Virus record (IMG/VR): IMGVR_UViG_2675903289_000001
Origin: a virus
Lineage: Duplodnaviria; Heunggongvirae; Uroviricota; Caudoviricetes
DNA: 14,355 nucleotides
Strand: one strand, 5' to 3'
In this document: one piece after another, positions 4,290 through 14,355 of the stretch
Layout: each line of letters opens with the position of its first letter
How positions within the stretch are numbered: position 1 is the first letter of the stretch
Made by a program: the position numbers and the translations under genes
Notes under the pieces: generated by a model
Seen by the model: only the letters and a program-made list of their open reading frames with translations
Told to the model about the DNA's origin: nothing
Databases searched by the model: none

Positions 4290-4697
4290 NNNNNNNNNNN
4301 NNNNNNNNNNNNNNNNNNNNNNNNNNNNNNNNNNNNNNNNNNNNNNNNNNNNNNNNNNNNNNNNNNNNNNNNNNNNNNNNNNNNNNNNNNNNNNNNNNNN
4401 NNNNNNNNNNNNNNNNNNNNNNNNNNNNNNNNNNNNNNNNNNNNNNNNNNNNNNNNNNNNNNNNNNNNNNNNNNNNNNNNNNNNNNNNNNNNNNNNNNNN
4501 NNNNNNNNNNNNNNNNNNNNNNNNNNNNNNNNNNNNNNNNNNNNNNNNNNNNNNNNNNNNNNNNNNNNNNNNNNNNNNNNNNNNNNNNNNNNNNNNNNNN
4601 NNNNNNNNNNNNNNNNNNNNNNNNNNNNNNNNNNNNNNNNNNNNNNNNNNNNNNNNNNNNNNNNNNNNNNNNNNNNNNNNNNNNNNNNNNNNNNNNN
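4290..4697. other. Run of N (masked or assembly gap) covering the V 5' end, the U-V junction and the U 3' end
   Basis: Contiguous n characters in the sequence. Confidence 0.99.
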
Positions 4698-4900
4698 GCC
4701 AGGTATCGCTGTCCAGCTCTTCGCCCGTGTATTCAGCGCCGGTGAGATAAACGGCAATTGCCGGAAAATCTTCCTCATCAAAAACAGCGGGGCGACCATC
4801 AAAAAGCGTCGCCCCGGTGTCATGCTTNNNNNNNNNNNNNNNNNNNNNNNNNNNNCTCCAGTGCATCCAGTACGGCTGCACGGAGTTCAGTATGTTTCAT
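4698..4900 (-). CDS. U: Tail terminator protein U (lambda gpU-like), fragmentary: N-terminus 4856-4900 and body 4698-4827 are split by a 28-N run, and the C-terminus lies in the 4290-4697 gap
   Basis: Manual translation from ATG at 4898-4900 gives MKHTELRAAVLDALE. After the N-run the track ORF 4273..4881 reads KHDTGATLFDGRPAVFDEEDFPAIAVYLTGAEYTGEELDSDTW. ATGA overlap with the Z stop at 4897. Confidence 0.8.
4828..4855. other. Run of 28 N inside U (not a multiple of 3, so it breaks the frame)
   Basis: Contiguous n characters in the sequence. Confidence 0.99.
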
Positions 4901-8110: not shown

Positions 8111-9026
8111 TCGCCCTCCTGAGAGACGGGATTTACGTGCATCCAGTGCATCACGCATGACGGTGATCGCATCGGTACTGTTAACAAGTTCATCAGCCAG
8201 TCCGGCATCAATGGCCTCCTGACCGCTGTACACTGCAGCCTCGGTATCCAGCACAGCCTGCACGGACAGGCCGGTATATGCCGACACCTTCTGTGCAAAC
8301 ATCCGGCGGGTTGCATCCATCCGGGACTGCAATGTTTCCCGGACATCATCCGGTAGATGGCTGTAGGGGTTGCCATCCACCTTATGGCTGCCGCTGTAAA
8401 TCAGCGTGATTTCCACGCCCTGTTTCTCCAGTGCAGCGCCGTAATTACTGTGAGCCATCATGACGCCGATGGAGCCTGTCCGGGCGGTCTGCGTGACCAG
8501 ACGCCGGGAGGCGGCACTGGCAAGCAGCTGACCTGCGCTGCAGTTCATGTCATTGGCCAGCGCCCATACCGGCTTTATGTCACGCACACGGGCGATGATG
8601 TCAGCGCAGTCAAATGCTCCCGCCACCATTCCGCCCGGTGTGTCCATATCGAGCAGAATGCCGTCCACCATCGGGTCGCTGGCAGCCTGTTGCAGACGGG
8701 CGATAATGCCGTTGTAACCGGTCATCCCCGAGTACGGCTGCAGCGCCCGCGTCCGGCTGACCAGCGTGCCGGACACCGGCAGCACGGCGATGCCGTTCAT
8801 TACCTGATAACTGCGGGCCTGTCGTGGTCCGTCATCATCACCGGATAACGCCAGCGCCGCGGGTGCCTCTCCGGCAGTCAGGCTGTCGCCGGATACTGCA
8901 TCCGTCAGGCAGCTGATCCCAAGCTGGCCTGCAAGCGCACAAAAGAAAACCCGCGCATAGGCGGGTTCAAGCATCNNNNNNNNNNNNNNNNNNNNNNNAA
9001 AAGCCATGCTGGCAATATGCGGGAGA

Positions 9027-9046: not shown

Positions 9047-12727
<3,681 letters not shown>

Positions 12728-12753
<26 letters not shown>

Positions 12754-13273
12754 TCAGCAACCCCGGTATCAGTTCATCCAGCGCGGCTGCTTTGTTCATG
12801 GCTTTGATGATATCCCGTTTCAGGAAATCAACATGTCGGTTTTCCAGTTCCGGAAAACGCCGCTGCACCGACAGGGGGATCCCGTCGAGAATACTGGCAA
12901 TTTCACCTGCGATCCGCGACAGCACGAAAGTACAGAATGCGGTTTCCACCACTTCAGCGGAGTCTCTGGCATTTTTCAGCTCCTGTGCGTCGGCCTGCGC
13001 ACGCGTAAGTCGATGGCGTTCGTACTCAATAGTCCCTGGCTGGAGATCTGTCTCGCTGGCCTGCCGCAGTTCTTCAACTTCCCGGCGCAGCTTTTCGTTC
13101 TCAATTTCAGCATCCCTTTCGGCATACCATCTTATAACGGCGGCAGAGTCATAAAGCACCTCATTACCCTTGCCACCGCCTCGCAGAACGGGCATTCCCT
13201 GTTCCTGCCAGTTCTGAATGGTACGGATACTCGCACCGAAAATGTCAGCCAGCTGCTTTTTGTTGACTTCCAT
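12728..13273 (-). CDS. Nu1: Terminase small subunit Nu1 (lambda gpNu1-like), 181 aa
   Basis: ORF track 12728..13273, MEVNKKQLADIFGASIRTIQNWQEQGMPVLRGGGKGNEVLYDSAAVIRWYAERD...; N-terminal winged-HTH region and 26-nt overlap with the A start. Confidence 0.96.
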
Positions 13274-13294
13274 TGTTCATTCCACGGACAAAAA

Positions 13295-13413
13295 CAGAGA
13301 AAGGAAACGACAGAGGCCAAAAAGCCCGTTTTCAGCACCTGTCGTTTCCTTTCTTTTCAGGGGGTGTTTTAAATAAAAACATTAGGTTACGGCGAAGAAG
13401 AACGGAAACGCCT
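13295..13413. promoter_or_regulatory. cosB: three Nu1-binding R elements (R1 ~13295-13313, R2 ~13339-13353 in inverted orientation, R3 ~13401-13413) with an AT-rich IHF-type spacer between R2 and R3
   Basis: Shared core ggaaacg/cgtttcc seen at 13303-13309 (+), 13343-13349 (inverted) and 13404-13410 (+). Position between the Nu1 start and cosN matches lambda cosB organisation. Confidence 0.65.
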
Positions 13414-13450
13414 TAAACCGGAAAATTGTCATAAATAGCGAAAACCCGCG

Positions 13451-13462
13451 CGCCTTCCGCCC
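13451..13462. other. cosN core (12-bp cohesive-end segment) - variant sequence
   Basis: Plus strand cgccttccgccc (GGGCGGAAGGCG in packaging orientation), flanked by lambda-like sequence on both sides; lambda has GGGCGGCGACCT here as I recall. Confidence 0.6.
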
Positions 13463-13484
13463 CGTAACCTGTCGGATCGCCGGA

Positions 13485-13491
13485 AAGGACC
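13485..13491. other. cosQ-like heptamer (aggaccc, i.e. GGGTCCT in packaging orientation)
   Basis: Sequence and spacing (about 23 bp from the cosN core, on the side away from Nu1) match my recollection of lambda cosQ. Confidence 0.5.
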
Positions 13492-13661
13492 CGCAAAATG
13501 ATAATAATTATCATCTACATGTCACAACGTGCATCTACGCCATCAAACCACGTCAAATAATCAATTATGACGCAGGTATCGTATTAATTGATCTGCATCA
13601 ACTTAACGTAAAAACAACTTCAGACAATACAAATCAGCGACACTGAATACAGGGCAACCTC

Positions 13662-13895
13662 ATGTCAACGAAGAACAGAACCCGCAGAACAACAACCCGC
13701 AACATCCGCTTTCCTAACCAAATGATTGAACAAATTAACATCGCTCTTGTTCAAAAAGGGTCCGGGAATTTCTCAGCCTGGGTCATTGAAGCCTGCCGCC
13801 GGAGACTGTGCTCAGAAAAAAGAGTTTCGCCTGAAGCAAACAAAGAAAAGAGTGACATTACTGAATTGCTCAGAAAACAGGTTAGACCAGATTGA
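13662..13895 (+). CDS. Small basic protein, putative ribbon-helix-helix (Arc/MetJ/CopG-like) DNA-binding protein, 77 aa
   Basis: ORF track 13662..13895. Arg/Thr-rich N-terminal arm, predicted beta-strand RNIRFPNQM, helix IEQINIALVQKG, GSGNF turn, helix SAWVIEACRRRL. AT-rich codon usage unlike the structural genes. Fold assignment is from the sequence pattern only. Confidence 0.55.
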   Translation: MSTKNRTRRTTTRNIRFPNQMIEQINIALVQKGSGNFSAWVIEACRRRLCSEKRVSPEANKEKSDITELLRKQVRPD

Positions 13896-13952
13896 AGCAA
13901 TTTAGATAATCGTGCAGACTACGCCCCCTCATATCACATGGAAGGTACTACA

Positions 13953-14355
13953 ATGGCTCAGGTTGCCATTTTTAAACAAATATTCGATAAAGTGCGAAAT
14001 AATTTAAACTATCACTGGTTTTATTCTGAACTAAAACGTCACAATGTCTCACATTACATTTACTATTTAGCCACAGAGAATATTCATCTTGTTCTTGAAA
14101 ACGATAATACGGTTTTAATAAAAGGACAGGGTAAGGTTGTAAATGTAAGATTTTCAAAAAATAAATGCCTTATAGAAGCCACCTTAAAAGGATTCAAATC
14201 AGGAGAGTTATCATTTTACGAATACAGGAAAAATCTTGCTACAGCAGGGGTTTTCAGATGGATTACAAATATCCACGAAAACAAAAGGTATTACTATACC
14301 TTTGATAATTCATTACTCTTTACTGAGAACATACAGAACACTACACAAATATTTC
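13953..14355 (+). CDS. DUF1398-like protein (resembles E. coli lambdoid-prophage YdfO/YbcV-type proteins), 3' end beyond the window; 134 codons present with no stop
   Basis: Absent from the ORF track because it has no stop. Manual translation from the ATG at 13953 gives [140 protein letters not shown] lies 8 nt upstream. Family assignment is from memory, not a search. Confidence 0.75.

Follow-up and report, generated by a model that had tools for sequence, protein, structure and literature searches.

Adjacent YlcI/YnfO and DUF1398 genes beyond cos in a lambda-like phage genome: a probable accessory cassette of two modules

What are the two small genes that lie just beyond cos at the AT-rich end of a lambda-like phage genome, and do they work together? 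The question is raised by a 14,355-nucleotide stretch of viral DNA (IMG/VR record IMGVR_UViG_2675903289_000001), which is referred to below, at its full length, as the window. It is a lambda-like genome in reverse orientation, and positions 13560-14355 are its AT-rich end beyond cos. Two plus-strand open reading frames (ORFs) are found there. ORF1 (13662..13895) encodes a 77-residue protein of the YlcI/YnfO family (DUF3950), YnfO subtype, and ORF2 (13953..14355) belongs to the DUF1398 family (YdfO/YbcV/YcgX). The reading preferred here, to which we would give a probability of about 0.6, is that they make up an accessory, or "moron", cassette at the right end of lambda-like genomes, composed of two independent adjacent modules, a small DNA-binding regulator and a soluble protein, and regulated by the host.

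The identity of both genes is clear. ORF1 passes the curated cut-offs of the YlcI/YnfO family models, namely Pfam DUF3950 (PF13132; E=2e-20, 72.8 bits, cut-off 25) and NCBIfam YlcI_YnfO_N (NF041551; 35.2 bits, cut-off 30), and it matches phrog_949 at 6e-33. Its product consists of a basic N-terminal domain (residues 1-49, isoelectric point 12) and a variable C-terminal tail of 28 residues (50-77). ORF2 matches Pfam DUF1398 (PF07166) along the entire model (positions 1-119 of 119; E=2.8e-43, 147.2 bits) and, over residues 1-134, the nuclear magnetic resonance structure of E. coli YdfO (PDB 2HH8; E=1.2e-65). The original prediction that the second ORF is a DUF1398 protein of the YdfO/YbcV kind was thus borne out, with the correction that the gene is cut by the end of the window. 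From its ATG at 13953, which follows a GGAAGG ribosome-binding site at 13940-13945, ORF2 remains open for 134 of 136 codons, and the last two codons and the stop lie outside; the full length of 136 residues is seen in phage PhiR49_1, whose DNA is 98.4% identical. Hydropathy gives neither a membrane segment nor a signal peptide in either product, and that of ORF2 is soluble (maximum hydropathy over 19 residues, 0.39).

Both ORFs are genuine coding genes under purifying selection. In ORF1 this is recognized because variation concentrates at third codon positions: among 201 distinct sequences of the N-terminal domain, diversity is 0.045, 0.017 and 0.245 at codon positions 1, 2 and 3, respectively. 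For ORF2, the ratio of nonsynonymous to synonymous substitution (dN/dS) is 0.18-0.32 relative to the lambda and Qin-type copies. When viral loci are compared, YlcI/YnfO proteins scarcely vary over their first 49 residues, whereas their C-terminal tails are hypervariable.

A sharp change of composition beyond cos had been proposed from inspection, and the measurements agree with it. The GC content of 13560-14355 is 0.367, against 0.566 +/- 0.022 (minimum 0.509) in 190 other segments of 796 nt; it ranges from 0.31 to 0.44 in the cassette compared with 0.57 in the flanks, and ORF2 alone has 0.31. Masked runs of N in the structural-gene part (483-931, 938-1070, 4290-4697, 4828-4855 and 8976-8998) account for the zero-GC rows of the composition profile. 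The ORF coordinates also match the proposal of two plus-strand genes that point away from cos, antisense to the Nu1/A side: Nu1 (12728..13273) and terminase A (10828..12753) are both on the minus strand. The start of Nu1 is 388 nt upstream of ORF1. This fits the typical location of YlcI/YnfO genes, which close the right arm and are read away from the small terminase gene on the other strand.

Distinct composition together with presence/absence polymorphism, with alternative cargos in the same slot, is what is expected of a moron. The bor and lom morons of lambda are likewise AT-rich relative to their neighbours, dispensable and variably present in collinear phages, and bor is, like the cassette, oriented against the late transcript. 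In contrast to bor and lom, the cassette lacks a recognisable terminator, ORF1 has no consensus promoter, and any phenotype in the lysogen is putative. The idea of a moron expressed from its own promoter is supported in part, by composition and polymorphism; a promoter-like site is present before ORF2 only.

By its sequence, the cassette can be recognized as the ynfO-ydfO accessory genes of lambda-like prophages, which are already known and annotated. Of 5426 complete E. coli genomes, 2669 contain 80% or more of the 796-nt segment. The RefSeq labels of its genes are 'YlcI/YnfO family protein' and 'DUF1398 domain-containing protein', and in some records the name ynfO is given as well. The Qin prophage of K-12 has the same two families in the same order and orientation, with the same 57-nt spacing, an adjoining Nu1 homologue and a ynfO tail of the same YnfO type as that of ORF1. 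Nevertheless, the ORF2 allele of the window has diverged (76% protein identity to the Qin-type), and Qin is a cryptic remnant, whereas the lambda-like genome of the window appears to be intact and is 98.4% identical to PhiR49_1, an inducible phage.

A comparable arrangement exists in lambda itself, whose right end carries an unannotated YlcI-like ORF, lambdap79 (YbcW-like), lambdap78 (YbcV-like) and bor, the equivalent of ylcI-ybcW-ybcV-borD in DLP12; in the original lambda record (J02459), neither the YlcI-like nor the DUF1398 gene is annotated. The DNA of lambda and that of the window are about 97% identical from cosQ through codon 49 of ORF1. The lambda ORF1, of 64 residues, ends in a different tail, and an insertion of about 560 nt with lambdap79 on the opposite strand separates the YlcI-like ORF from the DUF1398 gene. 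Homology resumes at AGGT[C/T]AGACCAGATTGAA and runs through lambdap78, with DUF1398 proteins that are 76% identical. Further downstream lambda has bor, whereas no bor is annotated in PhiR49_1, the closest phage.

DUF1398 is detectable in only 43 of 50,697 phage records, all of them lambda-like. For distant DUF3950 proteins, an exhaustive search of 1.8 billion representatives gave 110 clusters, and their genes lie in integrase-primase satellite-like elements or chromosomal islands, where DUF1398 never adjoins them. Some of these islands (among L439-L448) stand beside fimbrial and type I restriction genes. Both genes of the cassette thus belong to named families, one with a solved structure, in an arrangement annotated in thousands of genomes, and the discovery value is small; what is left is a pointer to a gene that adjoins cos both in lambda and in roughly every second complete E. 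coli genome.

Do the two genes belong together? For this question, 222 non-identical viral loci with a YlcI/YnfO gene were collected, and the type of tail was compared with the downstream gene. The window-type tail (CSEKRVS[PS]EANK...) is followed by DUF1398, at 57 nt, in 54 of 54 loci. With the lambda-type tail (TSEKRAYTSIKS) this is the case in 20 of 26 loci, at a distance of about 550 nt, while the tails ATDATH.., STE[SR]SG.., INEK.. and TSEKRAYTSIQS have no DUF1398 within 1.6 kb. Loci with one of these last tails have other cargo, such as a TonB_C-like lipoprotein gene or an opposite-strand PerC-like gene, or lead directly to the lysis genes. On the upstream side, a divergent Nu1 homologue is found at 360-440 nt in 172 of 232 loci; no Nu1 is detectable in the other 60, and the one of these that was examined (L164) has an HNH-TerS-TerL packaging module in the Nu1 position. 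It is thus the DUF3950 gene that constantly adjoins the packaging module, while DUF1398 is one of several alternative cargos. The cargo site, which separates the YlcI/YnfO gene from the lysis genes (at L164, L243 and L255, for instance), is variable and contains, depending on the phage, DUF1398; YbcW-like, DUF1398 and Bor genes; a TonB_C-like lipoprotein; a PerC-like regulator; or nothing.

That a window-type tail is always accompanied by DUF1398 is easily explained. The last codons of this tail (KQVRPD-stop) lie in a conserved control region, and this region moves together with the DUF1398 gene. In effect, the end of the tail is also the promoter region of the neighbouring gene, and the linkage is one of contiguity. 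Because of this, and because other tails occur without DUF1398, ORF1 and ORF2 are separate modules whose linkage is not obligate, and they are better studied as such than as a pair.

The original prediction had instead suggested a regulator-effector or toxin-antitoxin-like unit. In such a unit, a ribbon-helix-helix (RHH) domain of ORF1 could bind DNA and its tail could neutralise or control the DUF1398 protein. The architecture recalls type II antitoxins, with a small upstream gene, a putative RHH N-terminus and a variable tail; the association in 54 of 54 loci and a weak HicB-like match in PHROG (0.055) point in the same direction. Nevertheless, such a dedicated unit is unlikely. The association is accounted for by contiguity, and the obligate co-occurrence expected of a type II toxin-antitoxin system is not observed, since most DUF3950 genes have no DUF1398 neighbour and the two lambda genes are kept apart by a third one of opposite orientation. 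In K-12, a further homologue of ybcV/ydfO, ycgX, is described beside bluR, outside the DLP12 and Qin prophages (PMC3509220). Pfam places ORF2 in DUF1398 only and in no toxin family, and the PADLOC defence models give no match for ORF1 and only a weak one, to Csx23 (0.023), for ORF2. Moreover, a ybcV::Kan strain exists in the Keio collection (PMC3945230), ORF2 has a promoter-like site of its own rather than translational coupling, and a model of the fused ORF1-ORF2 chain is unusable (predicted local distance difference test, pLDDT, of 40.9).

ORF1 and ORF2 are in the same frame, with one TGA and 19 sense codons between them (13893-13952), and public databases hold 'fusion' proteins, such as P0134 (233 aa, 761 members), that correspond to ORF1 and ORF2 with Trp in place of the TGA. 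Rather than real read-through, they probably reflect gene calling under an alternative genetic code. Programmed read-through of the TGA was considered and set aside: no evidence supports it, the chance of finding the two in frame with 19 sense codons is roughly 0.1, and the examples are near-identical DNA.

What kind of regulator might ORF1 be? According to the preferred reading of two independent modules, its first 49 residues would most likely form an Arc/CopG-like RHH dimer that binds DNA and regulates transcription. The pattern RNIRFPNQMIEQINIALVQKGSGNFSAWVIEACRRRL fits a strand-helix-glycine turn-helix scheme. As in the repressors Arc, Mnt and CopG and in RHH antitoxins (MazE6/7, ParD, RelB), the protein is small and has a basic N-terminal arm; its beta-strand-like NIRFP motif resembles NLRWP of Arc, and two helices joined at a glycine-containing turn are predicted for it, as in those proteins. 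In hhalign comparisons, NIRFP falls on NLRWP in the expected register (E=0.029, probability 1.7%, not significant), and the register with Mnt is also right, again without significance. In the AlphaFold2 monomer, whose pLDDT averages 71.6 and reaches 87-89 at residues 21-50, the basic arm is unstructured, helices span residues 19-32 and 34-54, and the variable tail is predicted with low confidence.

By contrast, no statistically significant sequence, profile or structural match joins ORF1 to those repressors and antitoxins or to any known RHH family. No Pfam RHH family matches it even at E=10, no RHH protein came up when profiles built from ORF1 alignments were compared with PDB sequences, and Foldseek gave no matches with the ORF1 model; a match to RHH_6 (0.092) was seen in one distant DUF3950 member only. 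Of the earlier proposal that ORF1 is an RHH protein, then, the topology is compatible with the model and with the hhalign register, while the expected family match failed to appear. An RHH fold is plausible for the N-terminal domain.

If ORF1 does bind DNA, a candidate target is near at hand. The non-coding leader that precedes it (13520..13661, plus strand, outside the cos insert) is highly conserved, with a per-site diversity of 0.004-0.07 among 99 collinear loci that is not above that of synonymous sites in ORF1 (0.07). An imperfect inverted repeat, ATCAATTATGACG ... CGTATTAATTGAT (13560-13572 and 13580-13592, plus strand), found by a repeat search, lies within the most conserved 30-nt block of the leader (diversity 0.004) and beyond the 238-bp cos segment described below. 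This repeat may serve as an operator or other regulatory site, and ORF1, as the constant last gene of the right arm diverging from the packaging genes, might be the protein that recognizes it. A consensus scan found no consensus sigma-70 promoter on the plus strand upstream of ORF1.

ORF2, on the other hand, is preceded by a control module of its own (13876..13910, plus strand), which overlaps the last codons of ORF1. The promoter scan gave, before ORF2 only, a promoter-like pair consisting of TAGACC (13883-13888), a 16-nt spacer and GATAAT (13905-13910), with 9 of 12 consensus positions. It overlaps a GGT-N3-ACC palindrome, AACAGGTTAGACCAGAT (13876-13892), that agrees with the PdhR box at 10 of 14 positions, a match that by sequence alone is indistinguishable from chance; a PdhR consensus search with up to three mismatches did not recover it. 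The lambda homology resumes exactly at this box, and thus the box travels with the DUF1398 gene. After ORF2, a consensus scan of locus L001 of PhiR49_1 (L001 coordinate + 9279 = window coordinate) found no terminator-like site on the plus strand. The same locus has a plus-strand ORF of 53 codons after ORF2 (L001 5133-5294, outside the window), whose DNA is seen again, close to the Rz end, in other cargo variants; this ORF matches no PADLOC, NCBIfam or Rfam family. Rfam found no RNA families in the window or in L001.

Data from relatives give some indication of how the DUF1398 gene may be used. In genomic SELEX (systematic evolution of ligands by exponential enrichment), PdhR peaks were found at the equivalent sites beside ybcV in DLP12 and in ynfO>ydfO in Qin, and loss of pdhR lowered ybcV mRNA 10-fold (PMC7660256). 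On exposure to an ionic liquid, the ydfO transcript rises strongly but transiently, and overexpression of ydfO is cited as raising oxidative-stress resistance (PMC4077768). In addition, ydfO responds to DicC overexpression, and ybcV/ybcW increase more than 1000-fold on overexpression of T4 MotB, which alters H-NS-dependent repression. A study of transposon insertions scores ydfO as 'essential only by TraDIS' (transposon-directed insertion site sequencing; few insertions) despite its location in a prophage (PMC5821084); AT-rich or H-NS-bound DNA, or mapping, may be the cause. Given its promoter-like element with a PdhR-type box, ORF2, predicted to be a soluble alpha/beta protein, is likely to be transcribed in the prophage state and controlled by the host, and it would most likely act in the lysogen as a modifier of host physiology or stress tolerance.

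For lytic growth ORF2 is dispensable. In lambda, CRISPR interference against lambdap78 leaves plating unaffected, and knock-down of lambdap79, on the strand of the late transcript, is polar on late genes (PMC10695390). This confirms that the late transcript crosses this region antisense to the cassette, and both ORF1 and ORF2 are antisense to the PR' late transcript.

A different role for ORF1 has to be weighed, in which it does not regulate accessory genes but is tied to packaging or cos, for example as an accessory DNA-binding factor or by regulating the transcripts that pass through cos to the terminase genes. The packaging module is kept as its upstream neighbour, with Nu1 of the lambda type in the 172 loci mentioned above and HNH-TerS-TerL in the one Nu1-less locus examined, and the downstream neighbour varies. 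YlcI/YnfO proteins are also listed in capsid-forming phage-inducible chromosomal islands with their own TerS/TerL (PMC13612085), and among the distant proteins (P0304, at L439 4001-4390, and those of L440-L448) there is one with a fused TerS-like Terminase_2 segment (1.7e-6). The low diversity of the leader between cos and ORF1 is in keeping with such a role as well. However, ORF1 lies outside the 238-bp segment with cosQ, cosN and cosB (PMC4856287) and reads away from cos, and the distant DUF3950 genes in integrase-primase elements and chromosomal islands have no packaging genes nearby. A packaging function is thus doubtful.

A bolder version of the regulator idea, which we regard as improbable and offer as speculation, is that YlcI/YnfO proteins are DNA-binding regulators of the packaging-module boundary in lambdoid phages and satellites. 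They would control transcription across cos, or leftward accessory transcription, through the conserved leader and inverted repeat in 13520-13661, and tails of the YnfO subtype may in addition contact the DUF1398 protein. If this were true, an overlooked regulatory gene would be added to the lambda map.

It is very unlikely that the conserved N-terminal segment of ORF1 acts mainly at the level of DNA, as a recombination linker between phage modules, with both ORFs as decaying passengers. In favour of this, codon 49 is exactly the last before the mosaic junction, and the sequences beyond it are many and diverse. Decay is at odds, however, with a diversity of 0.245 at third positions against 0.017-0.045 at the others, with the dN/dS of ORF2 and with the retention of intact ORFs in thousands of genomes. 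Finally, the database labels that make ORF2 a virion 'head protein' (PHROG 413 and the RefSeq NC_ phage records listed, e.g. lambda NC_001416 and NC_019711) or, in older records, a 'putative envelope protein' are unsupported by its sequence, position or strand and are almost certainly wrong, as the gene runs against the late structural transcript and is not part of the block of head genes, its product has no signal peptide or membrane segment, knock-down of lambdap78 has no effect on plating, and DUF1398 occurs in just 43 of the phage records searched.

The cos region itself (cosB, cosN and the cosQ side) is outside the cassette, at about 13281..13519 of the window. It was mapped from lambda bp 48446-182, a 238-bp segment that holds the three sites (PMC4856287). 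When the window is aligned with the right end of lambda, position 13463 corresponds to lambda bp 48502, and therefore the equivalent of the cosN 12-mer is at 13451-13462, where it reads CGCCTTCCGCCC. Lambda and a Qin-like locus have AGGTCGCCGCCC instead. Because 5 of the 12 positions differ while the flanks are conserved, the cohesive-end sequence of the window phage is probably different from that of lambda. In the position of cosQ, the heptamer AGGACCC (13486-13492) is present, which has the sequence of the lambda cosQ heptamer.

Just outside the cosQ position there is a Fur-box-like palindrome, CAAAATGATAATAATTATC (13494-13512), which agrees with 16 of 19 positions of the Fur consensus. None of 200 shuffles reaches this value, although the significance is overstated because the shuffle control is the whole, GC-rich window. 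It is overlapped by a minus-strand promoter-like site (13525..13498; GTGACA, 16 nt, TATCAT; 10 of 12 positions) that points to cos and Nu1.

A last observation concerns the databases. The search of contigs for distant DUF1398 contexts gave mostly contamination with lambda control DNA, and many noisy variants of YnfO and YbcV stem from lambda DNA in unrelated assemblies. Examples are 'plasmids' of about 3.55 kb in Arcanobacterium and Brevibacillus and 48-kb contigs in Pseudomonas and Shewanella (L408-L435); the 'Campylobacter phage' MW057783 (48,361 bp) is lambda DNA, as are ENA contigs of about 3.5 kb. These sequences are likely to be spike-in or control DNA, and the pieces of about 3.5 kb match in size the nanopore control amplicon from the lambda right end.
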